Shown here piece by piece: positions 257-63,770 of a stretch of DNA of 64,000 nucleotides; the first letter of the stretch is position 1; each line of letters starts with the position of its first letter. The notes below the pieces were generated by a model. The model was not told the DNA's origin. It worked only from the letters and a program-made list of their open reading frames with translations, and made no database searches. A program made the translations under genes and the position numbers. Source of the DNA: Planctomycetota bacterium (lineage in GTDB: Bacteria > Planctomycetota > Brocadiia > Brocadiales > Bathyanammoxibiaceae); contig JACQVQ010000005.1 in the NCBI GenBank assembly GCA_016209685.1, positions 24,655 through 88,654 on the forward strand, read 5' to 3'.

Positions 257-344
257 CTAGGGGCCAGGGGCCAGGGGCCAGGGACCAGGGGACAGGGACC
301 AGGGAAATAAATTTTTTCTACTCCCTACCCCCTACTCCCTAACC
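257..344. repeat. Heptad-word inverted repeat (CAGGGGA/CAGGGAC arm, AAATAAATTTTTT centre, CTACTCC/CTACCCC arm)
   Basis: ctaggggccaggggccaggggccagggaccaggggacagggaccaggg-aaataaatttttt-ctactccctaccccctactccctaacc. Clear 7-nt periodicity. The core is near-identical to 3822-3865. Confidence 0.9.
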
Positions 345-348
345 ACTA

Positions 349-1344
349 TTACTTCGCCTCAATCCAGCCCATCTTCTGGCGGAGTTCCTTACCGACCTTT
401 TCAATGAGCAGGTCTTTCTCCCTGGCACGGAGGGCCTCAAAGGAGGGGGCCCCGGCCTTATTCTCCAGCACCCATTCCTTGGCGAACCTGCCCGTCTGGA
501 TTTCGGAGAGGATTTTCTTCATCTCCTTTTTGGTCTCTTCATTGACTATCCTCGGGCCTCTGGTCAGGTCGCCAAACTCGGCGGTGTTGCTTATGGATTT
601 GCGCATGTGGGCTAGACCGCCCTCGTAGAAGAGGTCTACGATGAGTTTGAGTTCGTGGAAACACTCAAAATAGGCCAGTTCTGGCTGGTAGCCAGCCTCC
701 ACCAGTGTCTCAAAACCTGCCTTGACCAGGGCACTGACGCCGCCGCACAGGACTGTCTGTTCACCAAAGAGGTCTGTCTCCGTCTCTTCTGCGAAGGTGG
801 TCTCAATGACCCCGGCCCTTGTGCCGCCAATGGACATGGCATAGGCAAGGGCCACGTCCTTGGCCTTGCCTGATACGTCCTGGTAGATGGCCAGGAGGCA
901 TGGGACACCCCCGCCTTTCTGGTATTCCGTCCTCACCAATCTCCCGGGGCCCTTGGGGGCGACCATCATGACGTCTATTTCTGGGGTGGGGACAACCTGA
1001 TGGTAGTGTATGTTGAAACCGTGGGAGAAGCCCAGGGTCTTTCCCTTTTTGAGATGGGGTCTTATCTGGTCGTTGTATATACCGGGCTGTACCTCGTCTG
1101 GGAGGAGTATGTGGATAATGCTCCCTTCCTGGGATGCCTCCGGGATATTGAGGACTTTGAAGCCGTCCTTTTTGGCCTGGGTAAAGCTGGCCCCTTCGGG
1201 CCGGAGGCCGATGAGTACCTCCACCCCGCTGTCCCTTGCGTTCTGGGCCTGGGCCCTGCCCTGACTGCCGTAGCCTATGACTGCCAGCTTCTTGCCCTTC
1301 AGGTGTTTAAGGTTTGCGTTTTTATCGTAGTACATTTTTGCCAT
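349..1344 (-). CDS. ilvC: Ketol-acid reductoisomerase
   Basis: 331 aa. [12 protein letters not shown]...[19 protein letters not shown] Rossmann motif, class I KARI length, and ilvB-ilvN-ilvC synteny. Confidence 0.97.
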
Positions 1345-1367
1345 TACCTGGTTGCTCCTTTGATTAA

Positions 1368-1442
1368 AGGTTACAGGGAACAGGTTACAGGTGGTAGGTA
1401 AAAGTCTTTTCCCTGTCTTCCTGTTACCTGTGGCCTGTTTCC
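1368..1442. repeat. Heptad-word inverted repeat (ACAGGTT/ACAGGGA family) between ilvN and ilvC
   Basis: aggttacagggaacaggttacaggtggtaggt-aaaagtctttt-ccctgtcttcctgttacctgtggcctgtttcc. Confidence 0.9.
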
Positions 1443-1931
1443 TTATTTGCTTCCCCTTGCCATTGCAATCTGGCCTGTGCGGGCCATCTCCTTGATGCCG
1501 TAGGTGTGGAGGAGCTTGATCATGGCCTCCAGTTTGTCCTCGGTTCCCGACAACTCTATAATCACGTCCTTCTGTCCCACGTCTATTATCTTTCCACGGA
1601 AGATGTCCACTACCTCCAGTATCTCTCCCCTCTTTCCTGGGGGGACGTTGACCTTTACCAGTAACAAGTCCCTCTCCACGTAGGGGGTATCTGTAAGGTC
1701 TATGACCTTGATGACGTCAATGACCTTCCCCAGTTGCTTGCGGACCTGTTCTATGGTGGCATCGTCTCCCTTGACCACTACTGTGAGCCTGGAGAGTTCG
1801 GGGTTTTCCGTCTCACCTACCGTGAGGCTGTCAATATTGAATCCCCTGCTGGTGAAGAGGCCCACAATCCTGGCCAGGACGCCGACCTTGTTCTCTACTA
1901 GGGCTGTAATGACGTGTCTCATGTCTTTCAA
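1443..1931 (-). CDS. ilvN: Acetolactate synthase small (regulatory) subunit
   Basis: 162 aa. ACT-domain start [33 protein letters not shown]. Located directly downstream of ilvB. Confidence 0.95.
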
Positions 1932-3773: not shown

Positions 3774-3902
3774 CAGGACTAGAAACAGGGATCAGGAGCC
3801 AGGGGCTAGGGGGCAGGGGACAGGGACCAGGGGACAGGGACCAGGGAAATAAATTTTTTTCTAATCCCTGACCCCTAATCCCTGGCCCCTAATCCCTGCT
3901 CC
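3774..3902. repeat. Heptad-word inverted repeat (CAGGGGA/CAGGGAC family), long copy
   Basis: A G-tract arm of about 73 nt, the centre aaataaattttttt, then the arm ctaatccctgacccctaatccctggcccctaatccctgctcc. Confidence 0.9.
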
Positions 3903-3931
3903 TTTTGACCCCGGGCCTTATTGGTACGGGG

Positions 3932-4531: not shown

Positions 4532-5419
4532 CTAGGAGTGTGGGCGAGCAACGTATACCTTGTCAAACCCCTTCCTTTTAAGCTCTCGTCTAGTCTCTTC
4601 AGCCTCCCTTCCAGTATTGAAAAGACCGTATATGCAAGAACCGCTCCCTGAGAGCAATACCCCACAGGGACGGTAACTTTCAAGCAGGGTTTTTATCTCT
4701 TGAAGCTTCGGATACAGGCCAAAGGCCACTGCCTCTAATCTATTAAAGAGCAACTGCCCCAAAGACTTAGGACTTCCCGACTTAAGGACAGTGAGAAGGA
4801 GGCTAACATCTTTCCTGTCCTTTGTCAAGTCTATTTTCAGGTTCTGATAAATGGTGGCGGTAGGAATCTTTATGTTTGGGTAGAGGAGGGTATAATAAAG
4901 GTCCTTTCTCGCCGTTAGGGGTGGGCCGACCCTCTCTCCCCTTCCGCTACAAAGGGCGGTCCCGCCCTGGATGAAGAAGGGGACATCTGAGCCCAGCCTT
5001 GCGGCCATTTCCATAAGCCTTTCCCTCCCGATACCTGTCTGCCACAAGGCGTCTAACCCCTTTAATACCGTAGCGGCGTCTGAACTCCCCCCACCAAGCC
5101 CGGCCCCTACGGGAACCCTCTTCTCCAGACGTATTTTTAGGCCCCTGCTGATTCCAAGTTCTTCCTGGAAGAGTCTTGCGGCCTTCCATACCAGGTTATC
5201 TTCGTTGCAAGGGATTTCTGTATCAGTGCAGTGGAGTTCTATGCCTTTGTCGCCAGCGGTGCTACCGCTTTCTTCTATTTCCAGTGTGTCCGCCAGGTCT
5301 ATCTCCTGCATAACGGTCTCAATCTCATGATACCCGTCCGCCCTCTTGCCAAGGATTTCTAGAAAGAGGTTAATCTTGGCTGGGGACTGGAGACGGAGTT
5401 TTTTATAGACTTTAGACAT
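4532..5419 (-). CDS. ispE: 4-diphosphocytidyl-2-C-methyl-D-erythritol kinase
   Basis: 295 aa GHMP kinase. SPAKINLFLEILGKRADGYHEI and KRVPVGAGLGGGSSDAA motifs. Confidence 0.95.
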   Translation of the reverse strand: MSKVYKKLRLQSPAKINLFLEILGKRADGYHEIETVMQEIDLADTLEIEESGSTAGDKGIELHCTDTEIPCNEDNLVWKAARLFQEELGISRGLKIRLEKRVPVGAGLGGGSSDAATVLKGLDALWQTGIGRERLMEMAARLGSDVPFFIQGGTALCSGRGERVGPPLTARKDLYYTLLYPNIKIPTATIYQNLKIDLTKDRKDVSLLLTVLKSGSPKSLGQLLFNRLEAVAFGLYPKLQEIKTLLESYRPCGVLLSGSGSCIYGLFNTGREAEETRRELKRKGFDKVYVARPHS

Positions 5420-5492
5420 TGGACTATAGACTCTGGACTAAAGACCCTGCATTATAGATTAGTCTAAAGTCCAAAGTCTATAGTCTAAAGAA
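5404..5492. repeat. Heptad-word inverted repeat (TAGACTN/TGGACTA family) overlapping the ispE start and the rsmD stop
   Basis: gactatagactctggactaaagac (5422-5445) pairs with gtctaaagtccaaagtctatagtc (5463-5486), 21/24 complementary. The ispE codons MSKVYK and the rsmD stop lie inside the words. Confidence 0.85.
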
Positions 5493-6056
5493 GGCCAGTG
5501 TAGTATCACCGTAACTCCTTTTATCAAAGAGACAGAGATTGCCCAGACTCTCTGGCAGTTCAACCTTGTGGGTCCTATACCTTACCACTGCAATGGCATC
5601 CTTCTCCAGGAGGGACTCTCCTCCACTGCCCAATGCAGATACCAGGTCAAAGATCCCCTGTCCTTCCTTTGGTCTCTCCCACAGCACGTAGGGGGGGTCA
5701 ATAAAGACTAGTCCAAACCGCATCCCCCTTTTTTGGAGTTCTGGGAGGCATTTAAAGGCATCTCTTTTGAGTATAGTGCCTCTGGTAGCAAATCCAGTTG
5801 ACTCAAGATTTTTTCTTAGGGCCTGTACGGCCCTGGCGTCTCTTTCAATAAACACACACTGTCTGGCCCCCCGGCTCAGGGCCTCAATGCCCAGTGCCCC
5901 GGTGCCCGCAAAGAGGTCTAGTACAATACTCCCTTCCACCACGTTAGCCAGGATGTTAAAGACAGCCTCTCTTATCTTATCCTGGGCGGGCCTTACTTCA
6001 AGACCTCTGGGGCAGAAGAGTTGTCTACCTCTTGCCAGACCTCCGCTGATACGCAT
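5478..6056 (-). CDS. rsmD: 16S rRNA (guanine966-N2)-methyltransferase
   Basis: 192 aa. LDLFAGTGALGIEALSRGA SAM motif and FIDPPY catalytic motif. Confidence 0.9.
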   Translation of the reverse strand: MRISGGLARGRQLFCPRGLEVRPAQDKIREAVFNILANVVEGSIVLDLFAGTGALGIEALSRGARQCVFIERDARAVQALRKNLESTGFATRGTILKRDAFKCLPELQKRGMRFGLVFIDPPYVLWERPKEGQGIFDLVSALGSGGESLLEKDAIAVVRYRTHKVELPESLGNLCLFDKRSYGDTTLAFFRL

Positions 6057-6234: not shown

Positions 6235-6722
6235 CCCTTAGTGAGGTAGACCAGGTGTCTAAATCTTGTAGTGAGCGAAGCGAATCTGCTGGAAGGGTTG
6301 TTGCAGTCTGTATAAGTGAGAGAAAGGGCACCCAGAAGAAAGACGTTGGGGAGGCCCGTCTCACAGAAGACTACGGCATAGAAAAGGATGCCCATGCCGG
6401 TCCTGGCCATCGCCAGGTCAGCCTGCTGGCCCTTGAGAGCGCCGATACCATGCGGGCCAAGGGACTTGATATAGACTCAGGAGATTTTGGGGAAAATGTC
6501 GTTACAGAGGGCATCCATCTCAAGGATTTGCAGCTGGGTACCAGATTAAAGGTCGGCAAAGAGTCCCTCCTGGAGATTACACAGATAGGTAAAGAGTGTC
6601 ATGACCGCTGTGCCATCTATTATAAGGCCGGGGACTGCATCATGCCACGAGAGGGCATCTTCGCCAGGGTGCTCAAGGGCGGTACCATCCATGTTGGGGA
6701 TAAAATAGAGATAATCTACTAA
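6216..6722 (+). CDS. MOSC-domain protein (Moco sulfurase C-terminal-type). Start uncertain.
   Basis: From GRVVAVCISERKGTQKKDVGEARL onward it looks like single-domain MOSC proteins (GENVVTEGI, KECHDRCAIY). The first ~25 codons are encoded by repeats (SASGG, CSERSES). A GTG near 6252 is an alternative start. Confidence 0.75.
   Translation: MSASGGPLSEVDQVSKSCSERSESAGRVVAVCISERKGTQKKDVGEARLTEDYGIEKDAHAGPGHRQVSLLALESADTMRAKGLDIDSGDFGENVVTEGIHLKDLQLGTRLKVGKESLLEITQIGKECHDRCAIYYKAGDCIMPREGIFARVLKGGTIHVGDKIEIIY
6267..6287 (+). repeat. TGTAGTGAGCGAAGCGAATCT(A) 22-mer repeat, copy 1
   Basis: Exact string match. Other copies at 30720, 35512, 56956 (reverse) and 57966. Confidence 0.9.
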
Positions 6723-6725
6723 AAA

Positions 6726-6852
6726 GGTAACAGGTGACAGGCAACAGGTAACGGGAGACAGGTAACAGGTAAAAATATTTTTCCCTGTATCCTGTAACCT
6801 GTCCCCTGTAACCTTGCTTTTCCCTGTCTCCTGTAAACTGTTACCTGTAACC
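6726..6852. repeat. Heptad-word inverted repeat (ACAGGTA family), long copy
   Basis: ggtaacaggtgacaggcaacaggtaacgggagacaggtaacaggt-aaaaatattttt-ccctgtatcctgtaacctgtcccctgtaacc...ctgttacctgtaacc. Confidence 0.9.
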
Positions 6853-6857
6853 TAATA

Positions 6858-7367
6858 ATGATAAAGGCGGCCATACTCACCATCAGTGACAAGGGTTCCC
6901 GCGGGGAGAGGGAAGATAAGAGCGGACAGGTCATAAAGGACATCCTCAAAGAGATAGGGGTTGAAGACCCCCTTTATGATATAGTGCCTGACGAGAGGGG
7001 ACTTATCGTAAAGAAACTCAGGGAATGGAAGGATAGGGTAGACCTCGTCCTTACTACTGGTGGCACGGGCGTGGCCCCCAGGGACGTTACCCCGGAGGCA
7101 ACCAGAGAGGTGATTGAAAAGGAACTGCCTGGTTACGGGGAGGCCATGAGGATGGAGGGTTTTAAGGTCACCCCCAGGGCCATTGGTTCCAGGGCATTGG
7201 CCGGTATTGCAGGGAGGTGTCTTATAGTCAACCTCCCAGGGAGTCCCAAGGGGGTAGAGGAATGTCTCAGGGTTGTCCTTGAGGTCATACCCCACACCAT
7301 AGAACTGATAAAGGGCGAGGGAGGGGAGTGTGCCCGGCCTCACGAGAGGCATCATCATTACGAATAA
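6858..7367 (+). CDS. mogA: Molybdopterin adenylyltransferase (MogA/MoaB family)
   Basis: 169 aa. AAILTISDKGSRGEREDKSG and LVLTTGGTGVAPRDVTPEAT motifs. Confidence 0.9.
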   Translation: MIKAAILTISDKGSRGEREDKSGQVIKDILKEIGVEDPLYDIVPDERGLIVKKLREWKDRVDLVLTTGGTGVAPRDVTPEATREVIEKELPGYGEAMRMEGFKVTPRAIGSRALAGIAGRCLIVNLPGSPKGVEECLRVVLEVIPHTIELIKGEGGECARPHERHHHYE

Positions 7368-7425
7368 CAGGTTACAGGAGACAGGAAACAGGTTAAAAAA
7401 AATCTTCACTGTGGCCTGTTCTTTG
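7366..7425. repeat. Heptad-word array (ACAGGNN family) with a short right arm
   Basis: aacaggttacaggagacaggaaacaggtt-aaaaaaaatc...gtggcctgttc. Confidence 0.75.
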
Positions 7426-7442: not shown

Positions 7443-7470
7443 GAGATTCTTCGCTTCGCTCAGAATGACA
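7443..7470 (-). repeat. TGTCATTCTGAGCGAAGCGAAGAATCTC repeat (reverse orientation), 5 nt upstream of glyQ
   Basis: gagattcttcgcttcgctcagaatgaca. Same unit as 8722-8749. Confidence 0.9.
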
Positions 7471-7475: not shown

Positions 7476-8381
7476 ATGGCAAAAGAAGACTTCCTAACCT
7501 TCCAGGAAATAATCCTCAGGCTCCAGAACTACTGGGCAAAGAGGGGCTGTGTCCTCATGCAACCCTACGATATTGAGGTAGGGGCCGGTACGTTTAACCC
7601 GTCCACCTTCCTCAAGGCCCTGGGACCGGAACCCTGGAGGGCGGCCTATATAGAGCCTTCCAGGAGACCCACGGACGGCCGCTACGGGGATAATCCCAAC
7701 CGCCTCCAGCATTATTACCAATTCCAGGTCATCCTCAAACCCGCCCCTGACGATTCCCAGCAGGTCTATCTGGATAGCCTCAGAGAACTGGGCATTGACC
7801 TGGTGTGCCACGACGTCCGCTTCGTGGAGGATGACTGGGAATCCCCCACCCTGGGCGCCACTGGACTGGGGTGGGAGGTATGGCTTGATGGACTGGAAAT
7901 CACCCAGTTCACCTACTTCCAGCAGGTAGGCGGGATAGAGCTGGAACCCATATCCCTGGAACTCACCTACGGGCTGGAGAGGATAGCCATGTTTATACAG
8001 AAGAAGGACTCCGTTTATGACCTGGTCTGGTCGGATGGTCTGACTTACGGTAACGTACACCACAGGGACGAGGTAGAATTCTCTACCTATAATTTCCAGG
8101 AGGCCGACGTCTCCATGCACCTCAGGCTCTTTGATATGTATGAGGCCGAATGTAAAAGGCTCCTGGAAAAGGAGCTAGTCCTCCCCGCCTACGATTACGT
8201 CCTCAAGTGCTCCCACACCTTTAACGTGCTTGACGCCCGCAAGGCAATAGGCGTAACCCAGCGGGTACGCTACATTGAAAGGGTAAGGAATCTTGCCAAA
8301 GCCTGTGCCGAGGGCTACCTGAAACTCAGGGAGAGCCTCGGTTGGCCCATGCTGAAACAGGGGCTAGGGACTAAGGATTAG
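7476..8381 (+). CDS. glyQ: Glycine--tRNA ligase alpha subunit
   Basis: 301 aa. [34 protein letters not shown]. No glyS follows. The C-terminal QGLGTKD is encoded by heptad words (caggggctagggactaaggattag). Confidence 0.97.
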
Positions 8382-8469
8382 AGGTTAACTGAAAAAAGGG
8401 TTGCTAAGGGGTGATAAGTATGAAGTTTAGGATAGAATCTTAAAAATATTGCAAGATGGGAGGCGAAAA

Positions 8470-8652
8470 ATGGGTAAGGTAATAGCAGGGAATACCGTAG
8501 CGATTCCAAAAAAAGAATATAAGTTCTTGAAGAAATTGTATAAAACTGTAAAGCGTCAGCAGTTTTTATTCAGGTTGGAAGAAGCTGAAAAGAACCTGAC
8601 GGCTGGCAAGACAAAAAAGGTTCCGGTTGATAAATTCATTGAAAGCATCTAA
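8470..8652 (+). CDS. Small antitoxin-like protein (60 aa)
   Basis: ATG preceded by GGGAGG. MGKVIAGNTVAIPKKEYKFLKKLYKTVKRQQFLFRLEEAEKNL... Small and basic, followed 5 nt later by a toxin-like stub. The family assignment is not verified. Confidence 0.45.
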   Translation: MGKVIAGNTVAIPKKEYKFLKKLYKTVKRQQFLFRLEEAEKNLTAGKTKKVPVDKFIESI

Positions 8653-8657
8653 TCCGC

Positions 8658-8732
8658 ATGAAGCCGAAATATATCAAGTATGATGCTACGAGACCTCTGA
8701 AAAAGTTACAGCAACGCAATGTGTCATTCTGA
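8658..8732 (+). pseudogene. Possible RelE/ParE-like toxin remnant (24 codons) truncated by a repeat insertion
   Basis: Own translation is MKPKYIKYDATRPLKKLQQRNVSF*. The last codons and the stop lie inside the TGTCATTCTGAGCGAAGCG repeat. The position and the N-terminal pattern (..A.R.LKKL) resemble RelE-type toxins. Confidence 0.3.
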
Positions 8733-8794
8733 GCGAAGCGAAGAATCTCGTCTTTTATGAGATTCTTCGGTCGCTTCGCTCCCTCAGAATGACA
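8722..8794. repeat. Inverted pair of TGTCATTCTGAGCGAAGCGAAGAATCTC units forming a hairpin
   Basis: 8722-8749 forward and 8759-8794 reverse (with small indels), loop gtcttttat. Confidence 0.9.
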
Positions 8795-8865
8795 GTGAGC
8801 GGGGTTTTTCAGAGGTCTCAAACTATTAAATCTGGGGTAATAACCCCAAGACCCCCTGTCTCTAC

Positions 8866-9755: not shown

Positions 9756-9816
9756 AAATTCCAATTACAAATTTCATATTACAAATTTAGAATTTGAAAT
9801 ATGTAATTTGTAATTC
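9756..9816. repeat. Heptad-word inverted repeat (ATTACAA/ATTTCAT family)
   Basis: aaattccaattacaaatttcatattacaaattt-aga-atttgaaatatgtaatttgtaatt. Confidence 0.85.
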
Positions 9817-9820
9817 GCTT

Positions 9821-11353: not shown

Positions 11354-11375
11354 TCTTACCTCAATTCAAGAGACA

Positions 11376-11464
11376 CAGTAAGCAGTAAGGAGTAGGCAGT
11401 AGGCAGAATACAGTAAACAAATATATGTTTCTGCTTACTACTTACTGCCTACTGCTTACTGCTG
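11376..11464. repeat. Heptad-word inverted repeat (CAGTAAG/CAGTAGG family)
   Basis: cagtaagcagtaaggagtaggcagtaggcagaatacagtaaac-aaatatat-gtttctgcttactacttactgcctactgcttactgctg. It encodes the last residues (AVSSRQ*) of the next gene. Confidence 0.9.
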
Positions 11465-12654: not shown

Positions 12655-12815
12655 AAATGTCAAAGTCCAAATGACAAATGAAATCCAAATTCCAAATTCC
12701 AAAGAAAACTAGAGGCCAGAAATATTTGGCATTTGAACTTTGACATTGACTTGACATTTGAGCTTTGGAATTTGGATTTCCCTGCCCCCTGGCCCCTAGC
12801 CCCTGACCCCTATTA
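12655..12815. repeat. Composite heptad-word array (CCAAATT/CAAATGA hairpin plus an unpaired CCCCTGN arm)
   Basis: tgtcaaagtccaaatgacaaatgaaatccaaattccaaattccaaag ... catttgagctttggaatttggatttcc, followed by ctgccccctggcccctagcccctgacccc. Confidence 0.85.
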
Positions 12816-13859: not shown

Positions 13860-13861
13860 GG

Positions 13862-14026: not shown

Positions 14027-14035
14027 CGTACGGAG

Positions 14036-14773: not shown

Positions 14774-14801
14774 GTAGGGGCACGGCGCGCCGTGCCCCTA
14801 C
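14774..14801. repeat. GTAGGGGCACGGCG|CGCCGTGCCCCTAC perfect 28-bp palindrome
   Basis: Exact palindrome, identical to 63869-63896. Confidence 0.95.
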
Positions 14802-48022: not shown

Positions 48023-48027
48023 TGTCG

Positions 48028-49978: not shown

Positions 49979-50294
49979 CTACCCCTCCCGATTTGATAAC
50001 ATCCAGACATACGGCAGTCTCGTCCGTCGCCAGCAAGTATGCCCATTCCAACTGGCACGCTCCTGGGTTACGATTTCTTTAAATCTTCCAGGTTGAGTAT
50101 TGATTGGCAGTATTGAAATACTGTGCATCATCACTGGGGTCTTGCCGGGAAGAGCGCAGGGAAGAATGTCTGAAGGCCGTAGTAAATGTCTTGTAGTACT
50201 GTCCCCTCTTGATAAGGCCTCTCTTCTCGTAATCCTCAAACATTGCAAATTATTGCAAATAACGGCATGCAAATCAACATTTCGTATTTACTTA

Positions 50295-51053: not shown

Positions 51054-51054
51054 A

Positions 51055-52044: not shown

Positions 52045-52062
52045 AGCTCGCTTATCAGTGAC

Positions 52063-53130: not shown

Positions 53131-53308
53131 TCAAATAACAGCTAACAGCAGTCCCCTTTTAATGGCCTGTTTTGGTTCAAAATATTGAGAGTTAATAATA
53201 ATCGTTTTTGGAAAGGATTTCAATATTTTTCATTGATAATGAGACTTCTGCAAAATACTCAAAGGACATGCCAAGAAAAAAAGTACTCACTAACTCCGTA
53301 CTTTTCTC

Positions 53309-53923
53309 CTATCTCTCCTGGTATTGCCCTTTCTCAACCAGCATATCAACCATGCAGTGGCAGATAGTGAGGTGAGAGATCTCCACATGCCCGTAGGAGT
53401 TAGATGGGACAAAGAAATTGAGCCTGCCGCCTTTCCGCAGGGGATTATCGGCGGTGAACCCAGACATGGTAATAATCTCGCAGGCCTTATCCTTTGCGGC
53501 ACTGACCCCCCTTAAGATATTCTCTGAGCGGCCAGAACTGCTTATTGCAAAAAGGACATCGCCACTGTCGGCATGGAGTTCTATTGACTTCTCAAACACA
53601 TAGGGATAACCAATATCGTTACTGAGGCAGGTCAAGAGGGAGGCATCAGTAAAGGCAATGGCACGTATCCCCCCATTCTTACAAAAATCAGTCACCTGGT
53701 GGCTGGCTATGGAACTACTGCCCCCATTACCTATGAAGATTAGCTTCTTACCCAGGGCACTCTGTTTTTGGATTAAGTCTATAGCCTCCTGCATCCCCCG
53801 GGAGAACTCTAGAGGCGTACCTTTTGCATCTGTAACTTGAGTCTCCTTGAAAAGCGACCCAAGCTGGGAGAAATACCGGGTTATGTCCTCTGCCGATGTC
53901 CTTTTCTTACTCAAGGCCTTCAT
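53309..53923 (-). CDS. gmhA: SIS-domain sugar-phosphate isomerase (phosphoheptose isomerase-like)
   Basis: 204 aa. LIFIGNGGSSSIASH and FAISSSGRSENI motifs. Confidence 0.75.
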   Translation of the reverse strand: MKALSKKRTSAEDITRYFSQLGSLFKETQVTDAKGTPLEFSRGMQEAIDLIQKQSALGKKLIFIGNGGSSSIASHQVTDFCKNGGIRAIAFTDASLLTCLSNDIGYPYVFEKSIELHADSGDVLFAISSSGRSENILRGVSAAKDKACEIITMSGFTADNPLRKGGRLNFFVPSNSYGHVEISHLTICHCMVDMLVEKGQYQER

Positions 53924-55455
53924 TTAAGGAGGGTGGTGATGAATTTAAATAGCTGGACGGATTCTACTGGGGTCCTGTTACAAACCGTTGCCACCTTTAT
54001 TGCCCCAGCGACGTTACCCACGAAGCCCAGGATTTCTTTGTCCAAATCCCTGGCGGCACATGGGGCAGTCACTGCTAGATAGGCATCCCCTGCCCCAACC
54101 CTATCTACAACTTTGCTAGAGAAAATGGGTGTCTCACTAAATCCACTCCCCGGCTCATAGGCTACGGAGCCATAGTGCCCACGGGTAACCACAGCCCTCT
54201 TACACTTCATCCTGTTGACAACCTCTTCTGCCAATTCCTTCACCGGACTGAATCTATCAGCCATAGCAACACGTATCTCGTTTTCATCTATGCAGATATA
54301 ATCCGCCCTGGGATATTTGGTTATGGGATTAAAACCAAAATTCATGCTATTTGTCTGGGCGTTGACCGCTAAAAATTTGGACTTTCGGCACAAGAGTTCT
54401 ACTAGCTCCCCTCCGATGAATCCGTGCCCGTAGTCGGTTACCAGGACAAGGTCATAATCAGGGAGAGTAGACTCTAAGTAACCATATATCTGCTGGCTCA
54501 AATCACCAGGGAGGTCATGCCCACTAAGGTATGAGAGCTCAAACATCTTGGAAAGAAAGTCTGGGTCAACAAACCGTTTTTTTACTATCGTGTAGGCATT
54601 ATCCTGGTAGAAAAATTTTGGCCTCACGTTGGGCTTAAGGTGTTTAAGTATGAAGTCTTCCCTTGAATCCAGTGTGCCCAGGCAACTAACTAAATGCACA
54701 TCGTCGCATAATCCGGCAAGGTGGTTTGCAATGGCCAGCACACCTCCGGCAAAGGTCTCGGTGGAGACGTATCGGGTGGAGAGGATTGCCTCCTTCGGGG
54801 GCTTTCCCACTGCCTTGCAGTAGAGATACTCGTCTATAATGGTCTCTCCGACAACCAGCACCTTCAAGTCCCTAAGGCCTTTAAGCAGTTCAATAATCTC
54901 GGAGGCTGAGTGCCTCCGCTTAAACCCGTCCAGGAACTGCCGCACCTCATCGGTGAATACGTTAAAATGTTTATTCAGGAGTTCCGTAGAACTAAAGGTG
55001 ATTTCGTTAGTAAAGACTAGACGGCCTCCTACCCTTTGTATGGTCTCCTCTTCCTCAACAATTCCCCCCGTAAGGTCTTCCTCCGGGGCGGCGTACTCGC
55101 TCCCTTTTACGTATATATGGGGACGGAGAAGTTCTATGGTATTTACCGCCGTGGGCCATTTGTTTATCGCCACATAATCCACATGCTGGATGGCCCCCAG
55201 GGTTTCGGCCCTTAGGTGCTGATTAAAGACTGGCCTACCAGGGCCCTTACCCACGTAAATATCCGGGGTTAAAGTAACCACAAGGACGTCGCCTTGTTCC
55301 TTTGCCGCCGCCAGATGGTGGATGTGCCCGGGGTGAAGCAAGTCAAAGACCCCATGGCAGTGCACAACGGTCTTCCCCTTCTCCTTTAGACCTTTTATAA
55401 TCTCAGCAAGTTCTTCCAGAGACTTGACCTTCTTGTGAAAGTCACGCACCTTCAT
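53920..55455 (-). CDS. Bifunctional nucleotidyltransferase + PfkB sugar kinase (HldE-like, but with domain order reversed)
   Basis: 511 aa. N-terminal HCHGVFDLLHPGHIHHL (HxGH cytidylyl/adenylyltransferase). C-terminal PfkB kinase (VVDRVGAGDAYLA). Confidence 0.8.
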   Translation of the reverse strand: MKVRDFHKKVKSLEELAEIIKGLKEKGKTVVHCHGVFDLLHPGHIHHLAAAKEQGDVLVVTLTPDIYVGKGPGRPVFNQHLRAETLGAIQHVDYVAINKWPTAVNTIELLRPHIYVKGSEYAAPEEDLTGGIVEEEETIQRVGGRLVFTNEITFSSTELLNKHFNVFTDEVRQFLDGFKRRHSASEIIELLKGLRDLKVLVVGETIIDEYLYCKAVGKPPKEAILSTRYVSTETFAGGVLAIANHLAGLCDDVHLVSCLGTLDSREDFILKHLKPNVRPKFFYQDNAYTIVKKRFVDPDFLSKMFELSYLSGHDLPGDLSQQIYGYLESTLPDYDLVLVTDYGHGFIGGELVELLCRKSKFLAVNAQTNSMNFGFNPITKYPRADYICIDENEIRVAMADRFSPVKELAEEVVNRMKCKRAVVTRGHYGSVAYEPGSGFSETPIFSSKVVDRVGAGDAYLAVTAPCAARDLDKEILGFVGNVAGAIKVATVCNRTPVESVQLFKFITTLLK

Positions 55456-55476
55456 ATACGCAATGCCTCCCGACCT

Positions 55477-55493
55477 GTCCGCCTTAGGCGGAC
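55477..55493. repeat. gtccgccttaggcggac palindrome between the hldE-like gene and the epimerase
   Basis: 7-bp arms. CCGCCTNAGGCGG family. Confidence 0.9.
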
Positions 55494-55494
55494 T

Positions 55495-56481
55495 CTATTT
55501 GGAAAGGTATTCAAACCACTCCCTCGTTGCCTCAGAGATAGTCTCAGGCGTCCACACAGGTGCCTCACGCCAGTAATCTATATTCTCTAATAAAATCTTC
55601 ACGCCCCTTTCTAACGTTACCTTGGGGTTCCAACCCAATAAACTTTTTATCCTGGTAATATCCGCCTGGGTGCAGCGGGGTTCACCAGGGCGTTCCGGTA
55701 TATATACCACGTTACCACCCAGTAGTTCTACCAGGCAGTTAACACTATAGGCCTTGCCGTAACCTACATTCAAGACCAGCCCCGCATGTTCAGACCCTGC
55801 GGCCATGACTATGGCTTCCACCACATCTGTAACAAAGGTGAAATCCCTGGTCTGGTTGCCGTCACCTACCACAGTAAATGGCTTTCCTTTGAGCTTCTGG
55901 GCAAGAAATACCCCAAAGACCGCCCCATAAGTCCCAGAGGTCCTGGACCTGGGGCCATATACGTTAAAGAAACGGAGGGAGAGCACCGGGAGTTTATATA
56001 CCTTTCCCCAGTGCAATACGCACTCTTCCCCCAGGTACTTAGTAAGGGCATAGGGGTATTGAGGGCTTATGGGGGCCGTCTCGGGGGTTGGATATATATC
56101 AGGGATCCCGTAACAAGAAGAGGAGGCCGCATATACGAATCGCTTTACACCTGCCTGACGGGAGGCCTCAAGAACCGCCACCGTCCCGTCTAGATTTGAC
56201 CTATAATATTCCAGGGGGCGTACAATTGAAGGGACTATATCGGCCAGGGCTGCTAGATGAAATACCCAGTCTACCCCCTCAAAAAGTGGCTGAATTGCCT
56301 TCAGGAGGGCCACATCCCCCTCATGGACGGTTAGCCCCGGATGCCTCCCATGCTGTAAAAGATTCTGGCGACGGCCAGTAGAAAAATTATCCAGAACAAC
56401 CACTTCATGGCCGCCCCCTAGCAGCCTATCTACCAGGTGGCTGCCAATAAACCCTGCTCCGCCAGTAACCAGACACCTCAA
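55495..56481 (-). CDS. NAD-dependent nucleotide-sugar epimerase/dehydratase (extended SDR)
   Basis: 328 aa. TTG start. VTGGAGFIGSHLVDRL and YALTK catalytic motifs. Confidence 0.85.
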   Translation of the reverse strand: MRCLVTGGAGFIGSHLVDRLLGGGHEVVVLDNFSTGRRQNLLQHGRHPGLTVHEGDVALLKAIQPLFEGVDWVFHLAALADIVPSIVRPLEYYRSNLDGTVAVLEASRQAGVKRFVYAASSSCYGIPDIYPTPETAPISPQYPYALTKYLGEECVLHWGKVYKLPVLSLRFFNVYGPRSRTSGTYGAVFGVFLAQKLKGKPFTVVGDGNQTRDFTFVTDVVEAIVMAAGSEHAGLVLNVGYGKAYSVNCLVELLGGNVVYIPERPGEPRCTQADITRIKSLLGWNPKVTLERGVKILLENIDYWREAPVWTPETISEATREWFEYLSK

Positions 56482-56608
56482 ACAACAATTCTCCTATACA
56501 AAAATCTAACAAGCAAAAACAAGAATACATAATACTAACTCTATATTAGAATTTTTCAATAAAATTTTTCCAAGAACTTGTGGGGTATATGGACATGGGT
56601 TGCAATAG

Positions 56609-56895
56609 CCAGGGACTAGAATTAAGAATTCAGAAGTCAGAATTCAGCAGTAGGTTATGGACTATAGACTTTAGCCTATAGACTTTGGACTTTTTTTAGT
56701 CCGTAGTCCACAGTCTGTTTTTTAGTCCAAAGTCTTCAGTAATTAGTATTCTGAATTCTGACTACTGCATTCTTTATTCTTTCCCTACTCCCTACTCCTG
56801 AAAACATTGTAAATTGGAAATTTCAAAATTTCTAATTTACAACTTACAATTTCCAATTCTTTTCCCTCCCTACTCCCTCCCCCCTACTCCCTAAG
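56609..56895. repeat. About 290-bp nested array of four heptad-word families
   Basis: CAGAATT arms (56618-56653 / 56738-56782) enclose a TAGACTT/TGGACTA hairpin (56655-56737). This is followed by CCCTACT words, an ATTGGAA/ATTTACA hairpin (56805-56859), and CCCTACTCC words. Confidence 0.9.
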
Positions 56896-56947: not shown

Positions 56948-57895
56948 ATGGCCGATAGATTCGCTTCGCTCACTACAAGGGTTGACCTATCCACAGAGCT
57001 TTGTGGTGTAAGGCTTCAAAACCCCACAGTCCTGGCCTCTGGCATCCTGGGCACAAGCAAAGGTCTGCTGAAGGGTGTAGCCCTGGCAGGTGCCGGGGCC
57101 GTAACGATAAAGTCCTTGAGCCTGGAACCCCTTCCCGGCCACAATAACCCCATAGTGGTAGGGTTTGAGGCCGGAATGCTTAATGCCGTGGGATACGCCA
57201 ACCCTGGCATCAAAGAAGGGGCTAAAGAGTTTAGCAACCTCAAAGAAGTGGGGGTGCCTGTAATTGCCAGCATAATAGGTAGAGGTGTGGGGGATTTTAT
57301 GAAGGTGCTGGAGGGGCTCTGGGGGCTGGACTTTGCCGCAGTAGAGGTGTCCCTCTCGTGCCCTCACACGCCCGGTTACGGGATGCTGGCAGGGCAGAAT
57401 ACCCCAGAGGCCACTAAAGAGATTGTCTCCGTTGTACGTAAAGGTACAGAACTACCCCTCCTGGTGAAGCTCTCCCCCAACATTCCAGAGATAGGTCGGG
57501 TGGCCAGGGCCGCAGAGGAGGCCGGGGCCGATGGCATCACGGCCGTTAATACCCTGGGCCCCGGTATGTTAATCAACATTGAGGCCCGCCAACCCATACT
57601 GGACTTCAAAGTGGGTGGCGTCTCAGGGCCAGCCCTCAGGCCCATTGCCCTCAGGTGTGTTTATGACATTTATAAGTCGGTAAAAATCCCTATCCTGGGG
57701 GTGGGGGGCATATCCACCGGGCGTCATGCCATAGAGATGCTCATGGCCGGCGCCTCTGCCGTAGGCATTGGCACTGCCGTCTATTCCCGAGGGATAGAGG
57801 TCTTTGGCAAGGTATGCCAGGAGATGGAGGAATGGATGGAGATCAACGGCTGTACCTCAGTAAAGGAGTTGATAGGGGCTGCCCATGCACCTTGA
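56948..57895 (+). CDS. pyrD: Dihydroorotate dehydrogenase, class 1B catalytic subunit
   Basis: LQNPTVLASG and the PyrD fold, followed by pyrK. The start is set at MADRFASLTT. Codons 3-10 are the reverse 22-mer repeat. Confidence 0.9.
   Translation: MADRFASLTTRVDLSTELCGVRLQNPTVLASGILGTSKGLLKGVALAGAGAVTIKSLSLEPLPGHNNPIVVGFEAGMLNAVGYANPGIKEGAKEFSNLKEVGVPVIASIIGRGVGDFMKVLEGLWGLDFAAVEVSLSCPHTPGYGMLAGQNTPEATKEIVSVVRKGTELPLLVKLSPNIPEIGRVARAAEEAGADGITAVNTLGPGMLINIEARQPILDFKVGGVSGPALRPIALRCVYDIYKSVKIPILGVGGISTGRHAIEMLMAGASAVGIGTAVYSRGIEVFGKVCQEMEEWMEINGCTSVKELIGAAHAP
56956..56977 (-). repeat. TGTAGTGAGCGAAGCGAATCTA 22-mer, copy 4 (reverse orientation, in the pyrD 5' end)
   Basis: tagattcgcttcgctcactaca, the exact reverse complement. 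Confidence 0.95.
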
Positions 57896-57902: not shown

Positions 57903-58694
57903 ATGATGAAGATTGAGGAGGTAATCCTGGAATCCAACCTGGCCAGGAGTTTTATCTTCAAGACTTGTAGTGAGCGAAGCGAATCTAAATCCCTGGAATA
58001 CCAACCCGGACAGTTCATTATGCTCTGGATACCCAGGCTGGACGAAAAGCCCTTCAGTATCTCTTATCATGGCAAAGACTTCTTTGGCGTAACCGTTGCC
58101 CTCAAGGGCAGATTCACCCAGAGGCTGCACGAGATGAAGGTGGGTGAGTGGGTGGGCATCAGGGGGCCCTTCGGCACGGCCTTCAACCTGAACGTGGGAA
58201 AGGCATGTGTGGTAGGGGGCGGGGTGGGCATGGCCTCCCTGGCGGTACTCATTGAGAGGTTGGAGGATTCTGTGGTGGTGCAAGGGGCAAGGACGGCCTC
58301 GGAACTGCTTTACCGCAACCGCTTCAAGGACATGCTCCTCTGTACAGAGGACGGCTCTGCGGGGACGAAGGGTGTACCCACAGACCTGCTGGAAGATTTA
58401 TACAGACACTACAGATTTGACGCCATCTATACCTGCGGCCCGGAGGCCATGATGGTAAAGGTATCGGAATTCGCAAGGGAATACAACATCTGCATGCAGG
58501 CCTCCCTGGAGCGGTACATAAAATGTGCCGTGGGTGTGTGCGGACAGTGTTGTTGTAATGGACTGAGGTTGTGCGTAGAGGGGCCGGTGCTGGATGGCGG
58601 GACGCTAGAGAAACTGGAAGACTTCGGCAGATACGCCCGACGCGGAAACGGGCGCAGGGTACCTATTGGAACATATTTAGGTAAGAAAACTTAA
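57903..58694 (+). CDS. pyrK: Dihydroorotate dehydrogenase electron-transfer subunit
   Basis: FAD/NAD-binding domains (PGQFIMLWIP, VVGGGVGMA) and a C-terminal 2Fe-2S motif CAVGVCGQCC. ATG 57885 is an alternative start. The 22-mer is translated as TCSERSESK. Confidence 0.88.
   Translation: MMKIEEVILESNLARSFIFKTCSERSESKSLEYQPGQFIMLWIPRLDEKPFSISYHGKDFFGVTVALKGRFTQRLHEMKVGEWVGIRGPFGTAFNLNVGKACVVGGGVGMASLAVLIERLEDSVVVQGARTASELLYRNRFKDMLLCTEDGSAGTKGVPTDLLEDLYRHYRFDAIYTCGPEAMMVKVSEFAREYNICMQASLERYIKCAVGVCGQCCCNGLRLCVEGPVLDGGTLEKLEDFGRYARRGNGRRVPIGTYLGKKT
57966..57987 (+). repeat. TGTAGTGAGCGAAGCGAATCTA 22-mer, copy 5 (inside pyrK)
   Basis: Exact match. Forms an inverted pair with 56956-56977. Confidence 0.95.
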
Positions 58695-62409: not shown

Positions 62410-62436
62410 TGAACGATTATTATTAGGAGTTATATT

Positions 62437-62574
62437 CTGGGGACAGGGGCTGGGGATTGGGATTAAAGGAATTGGAAGTTGTAAATTGGAAATTTTAAAT
62501 TTAAAATTTTCAATTTCCAACTTACAATTTAATGTGTTTCCACTCCCTACTCCCTACTCCCTAGCCCCTATCCT
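62437..62574. repeat. Nested heptad-word hairpins (outer GGGGACA/GGGATTG vs CCCTACT words, inner ATTGGAA/ATTTAAA hairpin)
   Basis: ctggggacaggggctggggattgggatt [ggaattggaagttgtaaattggaaattttaaatttaaaattttcaatttccaacttacaattt] ccactccctactccctactccctagcccctatcc. Confidence 0.9.
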
Positions 62575-63626
62575 TCCTGCCCCCACACCACAACGCAATT
62601 CCTCTCCTGCTTGGCCTTGTAGAGGGCAGAATCAGTGGTCTTTATAAGGTCCTGATAGCTGTGTACCCCTTTGTCTGGGGTACTTGATATCCCGATACTT
62701 AGAGAGACTTTATAGCTGGCCGATTGATAATGGAAATGGTACTGTGCCACTTTTTCTTGCAGACGTCGGCAGGCCAGGCTGGTGGCAGTAGAATTGGTCC
62801 CTGGTAAGAGTACCATAAACTCGTCCCCACCGTAGCGGAATATTAGATCCGTCATACGAAGATGCCCCTGCATAATCAGGGCAAGCTCCTTAAGGACGTA
62901 ATCCCCAAAGGGGTGACCATAGGTATCGTTTATTGACTTGAAGTGATCAACGTCTATCATAACGCAGGAAAAGGGGTGATTGTATCGCCTGGTACGTTCA
63001 AACTCCCGGTGGATAGTATCTATGCAATGTCTGTGGTTATATAGGTTTGTAAGTCCATCTCTTATGGAGAGTTCTTCTAGCCTGCTATTTAACTCCTTGA
63101 GTTTCTGAAGGGCATCCATCAGGTTTGCCTTATGCTCTAACTCATACACCTCGGCCATATACTGGTAATCAAAATTCAACATCTTCTCCACGGCCCTCAT
63201 AATCTTGCCCAGTTTCTCTCTATCCTCACCATAATACTCCTTAAGAATATCGCGGAGGAGATGATAAAAGACGTTCAAGGCCCCCAGATACCACCTTGGG
63301 GCAAGCCCCAGTCTGAAATGCACTGCACCGGCGTTTACCCGCTTTTTTACGTAAGAAGGTCCGTAATCCCCTGAGAACAACTCCATTACATACTGAGGGA
63401 GGGCGCTCTTGAACCTTCCCACCTTTTGTTCATCCTTTAGTATCTCTTTCGTCTCTGCAAACCTCATCAGGTGAGACCAGAAACCCTCCACAAGCCTCCC
63501 CATATTCTCCTCAACAACGGGCCGTACCTCCCGCAAGAGGGCCTCGTCCTCACTGGAAATCCAGGAATAATCTTTACGGAGCTGGATGTCCTTTGGATCG
63601 GTGAGTTCAGAGTATTTATCTTGCAT
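62568..63626 (-). CDS. Globin-coupled sensor diguanylate cyclase (protoglobin-like N-domain + GGDEF)
   Basis: 352 aa. N-terminal sensor-globin pattern GAVHFRLGLAPRWYLGALNVF. C-terminal RYGGDEF with GLTNLYNHRH. Confidence 0.85.
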   Translation of the reverse strand: MQDKYSELTDPKDIQLRKDYSWISSEDEALLREVRPVVEENMGRLVEGFWSHLMRFAETKEILKDEQKVGRFKSALPQYVMELFSGDYGPSYVKKRVNAGAVHFRLGLAPRWYLGALNVFYHLLRDILKEYYGEDREKLGKIMRAVEKMLNFDYQYMAEVYELEHKANLMDALQKLKELNSRLEELSIRDGLTNLYNHRHCIDTIHREFERTRRYNHPFSCVMIDVDHFKSINDTYGHPFGDYVLKELALIMQGHLRMTDLIFRYGGDEFMVLLPGTNSTATSLACRRLQEKVAQYHFHYQSASYKVSLSIGISSTPDKGVHSYQDLIKTTDSALYKAKQERNCVVVWGQEG

Positions 63627-63646
63627 AGTGGTACTAGCTCTTAATA

Positions 63647-63770
63647 CAGGGATTGGGCAAGGTCACAGGGGACAGGGCACAGGATACAGGGGAAAAGATT
63701 TTTTACCTGTTACCTGCCTCCTGTTACCTGCTTGCCTGGCCCCTGACCCCTAATCCCTATCCCCTAAACC
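63647..63770. repeat. Nested heptad-word inverted repeat (outer GGGATTG/CCCTAAT words, inner ACAGGNN hairpin)
   Basis: cagggattgggcaaggtcacaggggacagggcacaggatacagggg-aaaagatttttt-acctgttacctgcctcctgttacctgcttgcctggcccctgacccctaatccctatcccc. Confidence 0.9.

Follow-up and report, generated by a model that had tools for sequence, protein, structure and literature searches.

Two kinds of described bacterial repeats come close to the elements reported here, namely, tandem heptanucleotide arrays and repetitive extragenic palindromic (REP) sequences. REP sequences and bacterial interspersed mosaic elements (BIMEs) stabilize upstream mRNA and attenuate transcription, and Liang, Rudd and Deutscher reportedly observed in 2015 that REPs lie within 15 nucleotides (nt) of stop codons. 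The short tandemly repeated repetitive (STRR) heptamers of cyanobacteria are said to have been described by Mazel et al. in 1990 with the consensus words CCCCAGT, TTGGTCA, and CAACAGT, and Vioque reportedly placed an STRR inside RNase P RNA in 1997. In this study, we analyzed a 64,000-nt stretch of contig JACQVQ010000005.1 (assembly GCA_016209685.1, positions 24,655 to 88,654), referred to as the window and used for all coordinates below. In this planctomycete DNA, arrays of degenerate 7-nt units are arranged as long inverted-repeat hairpins next to stop codons; a sequence-only reading had listed at least 22 such loci.

Heptanucleotide repeats are the most overrepresented long-unit simple repeats of bacteria, and their origin and function are unknown (PMC4692102, PMC4679880, PMC2670836). 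Devine et al. (2009) summarized that, in several cyanobacteria, hairpins made of 7-bp STRR repeats lie between hupS and hupL; these may stabilize transcripts, couple translation, or terminate transcription, and their function is still unknown (PMC2670836). Rehm et al. (2015) described GGGAATC and GGGGA(C/T)T arrays of Xanthomonas and Nostoc that lie near the ends of open reading frames (ORFs), with an underrepresentation between divergent ORFs; array length and sequence vary among close relatives while the location is kept, and no function was found (PMC4692102). In Xanthomonas, 70 to 75 pairs of GGGAATC arrays per genome are in convergent inverted orientation, GGGNATC-type heptamers form G-quadruplexes (G4s) in vitro, and a unit of 7 nt may, according to an idea noted by the authors, reflect the DNA segment gripped by the polymerase active site (PMC4692102). 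MacGregor (2015) found TAACTGA direct repeats a few nucleotides upstream of start codons in Beggiatoaceae, cyanobacteria, and Bacteroidetes, with 1 inverted case in 170, a patchy phylogeny, and no known mechanism, and cold-shock domain (CSD), S1, and CsrA proteins were discussed as candidates for heptamer repeats (PMC4679880). Heptamer-derived satellites of Chloroflexus were reported by Subirana and Messeguer (2019). Inverted, hairpin-forming heptamer arrays are, in short, already described, in Xanthomonas (PMC4692102) and at cyanobacterial hupS/hupL (PMC2670836).

The heptamer arrays of the window are real and far exceed chance expectation. In the 8.1 kb outside long ORFs, the self-match at a lag of 7 nt was 0.344, compared to 0.243 in coding sequence and approximately 26% at neighboring lags. 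Comparison of 39 intergenic segments with 200 dinucleotide-preserving shuffles gave a lag-7 value of 0.348 against 0.258 ± 0.005 (z = 16.9), with z scores of 13.7 at lag 14 and 6.8 at lag 21 and of only 4.7 at lag 6 and 3.0 at lag 8. A sliding scan detected 43 lag-7 tracts totaling 2,053 bp, where local shuffles predicted 0.45 tracts, and lags 5, 6, and 8 to 11 yielded 1 to 3 tracts each; although coding sequence makes up 86% of the window, 37 of the 43 tracts were mostly intergenic. Tandem Repeats Finder (TRF) returned arrays of period 7, 14, or 21 at all 22 listed coordinates, and the 7-nt periodicity above shuffled background that the sequence-only reading had proposed is thus upheld. Its statement that the hairpins fill nearly all spacers needs to be narrowed: arrays occur in approximately 22 of the approximately 36 spacers of at least 45 bp (about 60%), and the remainder lack heptamer tracts. 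Most heptamer-free spacers of this size contain other palindromes, either of a REP-like GTAGGGGC-N12-GCCCCTAC type, small CCGCCTNAGGCGG hairpins, or longer GC-rich hairpins, and the tight operons at 23 to 39 kb and 45.6 to 56.5 kb have no spacers at all.

That these elements are assembly or sequencing artifacts of a metagenome-assembled genome (MAG) is almost certainly wrong. Contig breaks do fall within arrays, and two assemblies disagree at position 56886; however, the array sequences are the same, base for base, in three independent assemblies (two NCBI MAGs and a Logan assembly of a raw run), and because of this identity the arrays are not regarded as an assembly artifact. In addition, related yet differing arrays are found at orthologous sites of five other genomes or metagenomes. 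The breaks include a contig of another assembly (L001) that ends inside an array at window position 3828. The window is identical to contig DBJWZG010000002.1 (GCA_052361005.1) from 42072 to 56886, and the two then diverge inside a CCCTACT array; past 56886, the other assembly (L093:1-6245) runs into a tRNA cluster, tuf, and rplKAJL-rpoB, with heptamer hairpins between the tRNA genes. This disagreement reflects either a true rearrangement or a chimeric join at the repeat. Heptamer arrays break metagenome assemblies and can yield chimeric joins.

The arrays follow one unit pattern. Phased and oriented G rich, 235 units read YAGNNNN, with a leading C or T in 84%, A in 86%, and G in 89% and with positions 4 to 7 almost free. 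AG was the periodic dinucleotide in 40 of the 47 arrays of the window (the runners-up were TA, with 27, and GG, with 24) and in 26 of 31 arrays of congeners, and an AT-rich AATTTGT/CCAAATT family is the sole exception to the YAG rule in the window. The 10 or more different words that had been proposed are therefore better seen as variants of this single pattern. The window has at least seven word families.

Each element is a long imperfect palindrome in which, on either strand, a YAGNNNN array makes up the 5′ arm and an NNNNCTR array the 3′ arm, with 3 to 12 units per arm. Two complementary arms are present at 19 of the 22 loci, which fold on both strands with z scores of approximately −4 to −13 and 26 to 69 pairs, so that the inverted arms and stable stems described by the sequence-only reading hold there. 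The single architecture that it ascribed to all 22 loci does not extend to the other three, since 7366 has a weak 3′ arm, 34568 is an unfoldable single array (z of about 0), and 45427 is one-sided. Nor is an A-run/T-run center a shared feature, being present at just 7 of the 22 loci (305, 1400, 1963, 3847, 6771, 44790, and 63693). In some families, each unit contributes a 5-bp helix and a 2-by-2 internal loop, for example, ACAGG/CCTGT in element E3 (1927 to 2002); other families, such as those of E5 (5404 to 5493) and E11 (13860 to 14027), form an almost uninterrupted helix. The ends of the ACAGG family are conserved (AAGGTWACAGG...CCTGTWACCTT).

The two arms of one element often differ in dialect, each being uniform inside its arm; in E1 (252 to 350), CAGGGRC units face units that read TAGGGRG on the opposite strand. 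The arms therefore look shaped by duplication within each arm and not by copying from arm to arm, and templating of the second arm by fold-back copying is unlikely. TRF scores were better at periods 14 and 21, which shows that two or three units were duplicated together. Slipped-strand mispairing may have grown the arrays in each arm separately, giving each its own dialect, and pairing of the 5-nt core may have been kept by selection or by a hairpin requirement during copying.

The polarity of the arms is strict. All 10 adjacent array pairs in the window have the G-rich arm 5′ and the C-rich arm 3′ on either strand (10:0), as the sequence-only reading had noted for purine- or G-rich arms in both directions of transcription, and the ratio was 11:1 in nine unrelated genomes of other phyla. 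With this polarity, a C-rich, G-poor arm would never be exposed unpaired on nascent RNA in either direction, which may avoid Rho loading. The same universal G-first polarity could also be read as a G4 or R-loop device, in which the G-rich arm, met first from either side, would block transcription both ways as a G4 or a stable RNA:DNA hybrid, a possibility already raised for the GGGNATC repeats of Xanthomonas and Nostoc. Ten arrays have at least four GGG runs at 7-nt spacing, and such heptamers form G4s in vitro (PMC4692102). However, these 10 are the only G4-capable arrays among 47, the ACAGG, CAGTAAG, TAGACTN, AGAATTC, and AT-rich families are incapable of G4 formation and yet have the same architecture and positions, and the complementary arm would compete by forming the hairpin. 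We regard a role of G4s or R-loops as very improbable, and a reading based on G4s only is rejected because most word families lack G runs.

Positions relative to genes were counted after several ORF calls had been corrected (6858 to 7367 on the forward strand is the real MoCF gene, QueC starts at 20755, and three small genes for membrane peptides lie in the spacer at 41.3 to 42.2 kb). Measured from the stop codon's outer edge or from the tRNA 3′ end, the array edge falls between −28 and +8 nt at 17 of 18 gene 3′ ends; the exception is E4 (3784 to 3905), which is 33 nt away behind a small extra hairpin. The gaps between an array and the next start codon range from 0 to 183 nt and contain a ribosome-binding site; in E4, the gap instead has a promoter-like TG-TATAAT site, kept in four species. 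The arrays thus occupy the strip from the stop codon of the upstream gene to just before the next ribosome-binding site or promoter. Pfam annotation bears out that elements separate ilvB, ilvN, ilvC, and leuA. The absence of a U tract 3′ of the stems also stands, since the 3′ flanks are not U rich; only downstream of E1, at 246 to 264, does an additional small hairpin carry a U-rich tail. Canonical terminators consisting of a hairpin and a U tract were not enriched in the window (32 sites, compared to 23.4 ± 5.1 in shuffles). Two other functions were rejected. A peptide-coding role was dismissed in view of the intergenic location and of a unit length not divisible by 3, although one array (39732 to 39792) does fall in an annotated N terminus, and start-codon regulatory repeats of the TAACTGA kind are ruled out by the position at stop codons. 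At the gathering score, the only Rfam match in the window was the tRNA-Arg, with no family for the elements; at an E value of ≤1, there were merely subthreshold eukaryotic pre-microRNA models, that is, generic long hairpins.

Based on these features, we give about an even chance to the reading that the elements are lineage-specific, STRR- or REP-like dispersed palindromes of Candidatus Tripitaka that act as transcribed hairpins in 3′ untranslated regions (UTRs) and between cistrons. In this reading, they would be transcribed with the upstream gene, and the RNA hairpins, by analogy with REP/BIME or cyanobacterial STRR hairpins, would form a barrier to 3′-5′ exonucleases and a weak or partial, U-tract-independent terminator or attenuator, thereby punctuating operons.

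Several points weigh against this reading. Transcription, termination, and stabilization by the elements are all points that we infer from the DNA. A conserved YAG core is unexplained by selection on structure alone; it suggests either that a sequence-specific factor is involved or that the arrays descend from, or are processed together with, GTAG-tagged palindromes. Divergent or 5′ regions hold five of the elements (19874, 22983, 41798, 45427, and 56614), and several arrays have no partner arm. In a relative with 83% IlvC identity (L086), the ilvB/ilvN/ilvC spacers are short and unstructured (z scores of −1.9, −0.1, and −0.1); the hairpins there are therefore gains and are not required at the ilv operon. 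Finally, to tell an RNA from a DNA level, the two strands were contrasted in folding energy, number of G:U pairs, and kinds of substitution, with a weak trend toward the sense strand. The sense strand was more stable in 10 of 14 window elements, with 69 G:U pairs against 42 on the antisense strand, and in 12 further elements of congeners the corresponding values were 7 against 5 and 53 against 44. Of 10 substitutions at paired positions of conserved orthologous stems, 6 kept the pair on the sense strand, 2 kept it on the antisense strand only, and 2 kept it on neither. The sense-strand bias is not significant once the congeners are added.

The host belongs to an aquifer and groundwater clade of anammox-related, Brocadiia-like Planctomycetota. 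Its IlvC is 100% identical to the IlvC named Candidatus Tripitaka californicus, and, among named organisms, Candidatus Hypogeohydataceae YC41 (89%) and Candidatus Avalokitesvara (73%) come closest, followed by Scalindua, Loosdrechtia, Kuenenia, and Brocadia. The genes of the window are ordinary housekeeping genes, including ilvBNC-leuA, spoVG, ispE, glyQ, a ThiF/cysteine-desulfurase cluster, ftsK, and recO, and there are also folP, pdxJ, type II secretion/pilin genes, comEC, a gene for a GGDEF protein, and the tRNA-Arg. Heptamer density is 32 bp/kb in the window, 16 to 65 bp/kb at other Tripitaka loci (L001, L087 to L090, L092, and L093), and 13.5 bp/kb in an 82%-identical relative (L091). It falls to 3.2 bp/kb in Candidatus Loosdrechtia (L006), 1.6 to 2 bp/kb in Hypogeohydataceae YC41 (L084/L085), and 0 bp/kb in L086, Scalindua rubra (L004), and two MAGs that rank with the closest IlvC matches (L005 and L007). 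A presence/absence difference between relatives, which the sequence-only reading had suggested looking for, was found, with arrays that are dense in Tripitaka and nearly missing from the nearest sister lineages (0 to 2 bp/kb). The sharpness of this contrast (16 to 65 bp/kb in Tripitaka compared to 0 to 2 bp/kb in relatives with 83 to 89% IlvC identity) makes a search for the machinery behind the arrays, by gene presence and absence, feasible.

Within the genus, the arrays turn over by units, by modules, and by whole elements. L087 exceeds the window by precisely one 7-nt unit at the methyltransferase/ispE spacer (E5; 65 nt compared to 58 nt), and the ilvC spacer (E1) has seven units in the window and five in the orthologue L124. 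The lyase/SdiA-reg and leuA/aroDE elements, and in L090 the aminotransferase/lyase element, are conserved with few substitutions, whereas elsewhere the word type at one spacer is swapped at nearly equal length. For example, the ilvB/ilvN spacer has an ACAGG element in the window and in YC41 and a TAGACTN hairpin of the same length in L087; the aminotransferase/lyase spacer (E9) has CAGTAAG in the window and L090, AGAATTC in L088, and CAAATGT in L089; and E8 is kept in L088 with two substitutions and replaced in L090. In the ThiF/aminotransferase spacer, the G-rich outer arm is conserved around an inner module that differs: the window has an AT-rich heptamer hairpin, L088 an AGAATTC hairpin, and L089 a GCCGCAGGC...GCCTGCG hairpin, which in L090 carries a further 32-nt loop insert. 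Distinct loci share identical multiunit strings of 20 to 39 nt, the center included, as at 279 to 317 and 3821 to 3859 or, inverted, at 13962 to 13986 and 56618 to 56642; arrays were therefore copied between sites as well as extended in situ. In some cases, distant loci have whole modules in common, and modules can be placed at the apex of another hairpin or take its place. Directly after the 5′ arm of the ilvC hairpin, L087 has an inserted nucleotidyltransferase/HepT toxin-antitoxin pair. A metagenome scan with the 18-mer CAGGGAAATAAATTTTTT was unspecific, with one true relative (L124) among the 120 matches listed.

The turnover bears on the main rival explanation, in which the elements are selfish or neutral DNA palindromes, tolerated only where they are harmless just past stop codons, and the RNA hairpin is a by-product. 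They would spread as single-stranded DNA (ssDNA) hairpins mobilized in trans, for example, by an HUH enzyme of the RAYT or IS200-IS605 type, or by illegitimate recombination. Both strands fold nearly equally, elements are missing from close relatives that have short, unstructured operon spacers, and whole elements change word type at one spacer among strains with 93 to 97% protein identity. Identical strings are dispersed over loci, contig ends and the assembly disagreement fall inside arrays, and the G-rich units are the heads of coresident GTAG palindromes, one array being in phase with such a palindrome; GTAG-tagged REPs are known from Planctomycetes (Di Nocera et al., 2013; PMC3733652). 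On the other hand, the genes annotated in approximately 95 kb of Tripitaka DNA include no transposase of any kind, no RAYT (Y1 HUH transposase), no reverse transcriptase, and no other obvious machinery. Target-site duplications, a criterion for MITEs (miniature inverted-repeat transposable elements), were not noticed at the elements, although no systematic search was made. The slight excess of sense-strand G:U pairs and wobble-compatible substitutions and the tight abutment to stop codons, instead of a random position in the spacer, also speak against purely selfish DNA. This explanation is compatible with almost all of the evidence and differs from transcribed hairpins solely on whether the RNA has any role; we consider it a serious but less probable alternative.

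The coresident palindromes raise a further idea. REP-like, GTAG-tagged palindromes of the GTAGGGGC-N12-GCCCCTAC type, 27 to 29 nt long and perfect or nearly so, occur in at least 10 copies in the window (14774 to 14801, 16867 to 16895, 17897 to 17924, 19813 to 19839, 21465 to 21491, 31525 to 31583, 42187 to 42214, 42287 to 42314, 45464 to 45491, and 63869 to 63896). Their 7-nt head equals the G-rich heptamer unit (G)TAGGGR, and at 45427 to 45491, four or five such heads lead in phase into the palindrome GTAGGGGCACGGCACGCCGTGCCCCTAC. Two or three of the palindromes lie within long ORFs (a molybdopterin oxidoreductase gene and a MiaB-like gene), and longer relatives fill the spacers at 43312 to 43459 and 43844 to 43992. 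We raise, as a speculative and rather unlikely proposal, that REP machinery makes the arrays, the unit being an iterated GTAG-palindrome head (GTAGGGG/CCCCTAC) and YAG being what a RAYT-like HUH endonuclease recognizes or cleaves. Whole heads would be added to or removed from each arm by recurrent rounds of cleavage and strand transfer at the hairpin foot. If true, this would account together for 7-nt units, a YAG core, G-first polarity on both strands, nesting in hairpin loops, and lineage-specific bursts and would provide the first mechanism for STRR-type heptamer repeats, unexplained since 1990.

The YAG core is also the starting point for an explanation by periodic binding platforms, in which a protein with a 7-nt footprint, for example, of the cold-shock-domain or S1 type proposed for TAACTGA repeats, binds YAG-phased RNA or ssDNA and thereby melts or locks the hairpin, tuning termination or translational coupling. 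The core persists across very different words, structure does not need it, one-sided arrays exist (8359, 27176, 34565, 45427, and 62542), and CSD, S1, and CsrA candidates have been discussed for heptamer repeats (PMC4679880). Yet no candidate protein was identified, the AT-rich family lacks YAG, unit positions 4 to 7 are almost free, and the words found in other phyla are unrelated and lack a shared core, all of which makes this explanation improbable.

Similar hairpins in other phyla were sought in 80 genomes that were sampled solely through IlvC similarity. Nine of these exceeded approximately 9.5 bp/kb of lag-7 tracts (L019, L033, L034, L037, L047, L050, L063, L080, and L082), and they comprise members of the Anaerolineales, Thermoguttaceae, Lacipirellulaceae, Calditrichia, and Desulfohalobiaceae, two Pirellulales, a deltaproteobacterial MAG, and an unclassified bacterium. 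Several have inverted hairpins with the G-rich arm first, z scores down to −11, and words of their own. AG was periodic in 28 of 66 arrays of other phyla, compared to the 26 of 31 in congeners and 40 of 47 in the window, and a universal YAG rule is thereby ruled out. Since the architecture is present in about 1 in 10 of these loosely related genomes, it may be a widespread and underdescribed form of gene punctuation, and the sample hints at such hairpins being common both inside and outside Planctomycetota.

The individual elements of the window are as follows, beginning with the ilv operon. E1 has seven (C/T)AGGGRC units, the center AAATAAATTTTTT, and four CTMCYCC units and overlaps the ilvC stop codon (349 to 351). 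Two ACAGGNN-type hairpins lie in the ilvN/ilvC spacer (E2, 1362 to 1447, center AAAAGTCTTTT; missing in the orthologous spacers of L087, L085, and L086) and in the ilvB/ilvN spacer (E3, center AAAAAGATTTTT). E4, with arms of nine CAGGGRN units and of CTRAYCC units around AAATAAATTTTTTT, lies between the spoVG stop codon and the promoter-like site upstream of ilvB. E5 is of the TAGACTN/TGGACTN type and overlaps a methyltransferase stop codon (5478). E6 (6720 to 6853; seven ACAGGNN and eight NNCCTGT units around AAAAATATTTTT) lies between the MOSC stop codon and the MoCF start, and E7 (7363 to 7420, forward strand) consists of four ACAGGNN units adjoining the MoCF_biosynth stop codon and a weak 3′ arm. 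A single G-rich TAGGGAC-type array (8359 to 8387, forward strand) overlaps the glyQ stop codon. The convergent spacer that follows glyQ (8382 to 8865) measures 484 bp in the window, where it contains a small ORF and GAGCGAAGCGA hairpins, 53 bp in L088 (a complete hairpin), and 43 bp to the contig end in L090; it is heptamer rich in both relatives, and the difference in length suggests an insertion at the hairpin site.

E8 (9756 to 9819), composed of AT-rich AATTTGT/ACAAATT units that break the YAG rule, begins 1 nt past a lyase stop codon. E9 (11372 to 11466), of the CAGTAAG/CAGTAGG type, reaches with its 5′ arm 25 nt into the aminotransferase coding sequence. In E10 (12668 to 12814), five YAGGGGN units start from the ThiF stop codon, and an AT-rich heptamer hairpin module replaces the center and 3′ arm. 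The nested hairpin E11, with 69 pairs in the sense fold, has YAGGGRN outer arms and AAGAATT/CAGAAGT/CAGTAGT inner arms and shares strings of 20 to 25 nt with 56618 to 56767. A small AGAATAC-type hairpin occupies a divergent spacer (19874 to 19903), and E12 (20637 to 20708), which pairs a TAGGGAC arm with a TAGTGCR arm, overlaps the final 28 nt of a radical-SAM gene. E13 (22983 to 23060), of GGCTTTC/GAAAGCC units, lies in a divergent spacer directly 5′ of a pheA-like start codon; upstream of this gene for chorismate mutase/prephenate dehydratase, it could be a leader or attenuator instead of a 3′ element. Two single arrays on the forward strand follow, one of AAAGTCC units (27176 to 27210) that overlaps the stop codon of a 58-amino-acid (aa) ORF and one of TAGACAR units (34565 to 34596), 10 nt past the lptE stop codon and with no stable fold.

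E15 (39609 to 39792) has a CAGTAGG arm and two CCTACTG arms and runs from the stop region of a GTP-cyclohydrolase gene into the annotated N terminus of an outer-membrane efflux protein. Its third array (39721 to 39792, CCTACTG units), within that N terminus, would encode a hydrophobic, signal-peptide-like stretch; either the start codon of the efflux protein is miscalled or the array has been recruited into coding sequence. E16 (41481 to 41610) takes up exactly the space separating two small ORFs that converge (stops at 41472 and 41604), and E17 (41798 to 41865), of the TAGACTA type, has a 21-nt string in common with 56654 to 56674. Three unannotated small ORFs in this region (41377 to 41472 on the forward strand and 41604 to 41792 and 42064 to 42153 on the reverse strand; 31, 62, and 29 aa) specify membrane peptides that are alike and have a single helix (…A[IV]G[AI]N[IV]YL…), each with a Shine-Dalgarno-like site, in a 1.4-kb, otherwise empty spacer split by heptamer and REP-like hairpins. 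E18 (44770 to 44833) is of the CAGTAGG type with the center AAAATTTT, and E19 (45427 to 45491, forward strand) is the array, of four or five GTAGGRR units, that runs in phase into a REP-like palindrome. In the divergent spacer at 56614 to 56895, the composite AGAATTC/TAGACTT/CCCTACT/AT-rich cluster E20 has a TAGACTT hairpin within AGAATTC arms, followed by CCCTACT arrays on either side of an AT-rich hairpin. E21 (62467 to 62576) is an AT-rich hairpin, 5′ of which, on the sense strand, an array of four or five TAGGGAG units overlaps the GGDEF stop codon. E22 (63659 to 63770) combines an ACAGG hairpin (center AAAAGATTTTTT) with a YAGGGRN array that is 5 nt away from the tRNA-Arg 3′ end.

Two other dispersed motifs were seen. 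Small GC hairpins of the form CCGCC-N3-GGCGG (mostly CCGCCTNAGGCGG) occur in at least 15 copies, many within annotated ORFs (for example, at 3718, 6220, 15117, 18007, 22195, 25116, 25457, 26399, 35478, 41955, 42005, 42625, 45224, and 55479), and the module is also found in loops of other hairpins in relatives L090 and L091. A motif containing ...GAGCGAAGCGAA(G/T)(A)ATCT... has two forms, GTCATTCTGAGCGAAGCGAAGAATCTC and CTTGTAGTGAGCGAAGCGAATCT, and lies at 6265 to 6287, 7443 to 7470, 8722 to 8749, 8771 to 8800, 30720 to 30743, 56956 to 56979, and 57964 to 57989; several copies are in coding regions, including those for MOSC and for dihydroorotate dehydrogenase and its partner.

The elements of Candidatus Tripitaka are not a categorically new system; they are a multiword, nested form of the known, unexplained heptamer repeats of bacteria. 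They bring a very high heptamer density in a new phylum, and the YAG core, G-first polarity, stop-codon abutment, and modular nesting and replacement constrain any model. We found no published report of heptamer repeats in anammox-related bacteria and no description, for Planctomycetota or elsewhere, of the multiword, nested, YAG-phased, stop-codon-abutting form, in a literature search that covered subscription journals thinly.

The kinship with STRR-type repeats proposed by the sequence-only reading is supported by the tandem, intergenic character of the 7-nt arrays (37 of 43 tracts); both are mostly intergenic, have several word families per genome, occur within operons, and are capable of forming hairpins. 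STRRs are cyanobacterial, however, whereas these repeats are from a planctomycete, have YAGNNNN words that do not match the STRR1 to STRR3 consensus, and show inversion, nesting, and stop-codon abutment as the rule. Like the Xanthomonas and Nostoc heptamers, the elements are noncoding, lie near ORF ends, and form convergent, G-rich-first pairs (10 of 10 in the window); unlike them, they do not use one G4-forming word per genome but at least seven word families, and for those repeats no nesting, replacement of modules, or YAG core is described. The TAACTGA repeats are likewise abundant, intergenic, and patchily distributed, but they consist of one word in direct orientation at start codons, in contrast to many words in inverted pairs at stop codons. 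With intrinsic terminators, the elements share a stable hairpin right downstream of a gene; they differ in lacking a U tract, in having stems three to six times longer, in lying inside operons, and in being symmetric on both strands. REP and GTAG palindromes are also intergenic, high-copy-number, clustered or nested, and downstream of genes; they have a single head in 20 to 40 nt, whereas the elements described here iterate 7-nt units on both arms over 60 to 180 nt, and GTAG itself is confined to the TAGGGRG and CAGTAGG families, most word families having YAG without GTAG.

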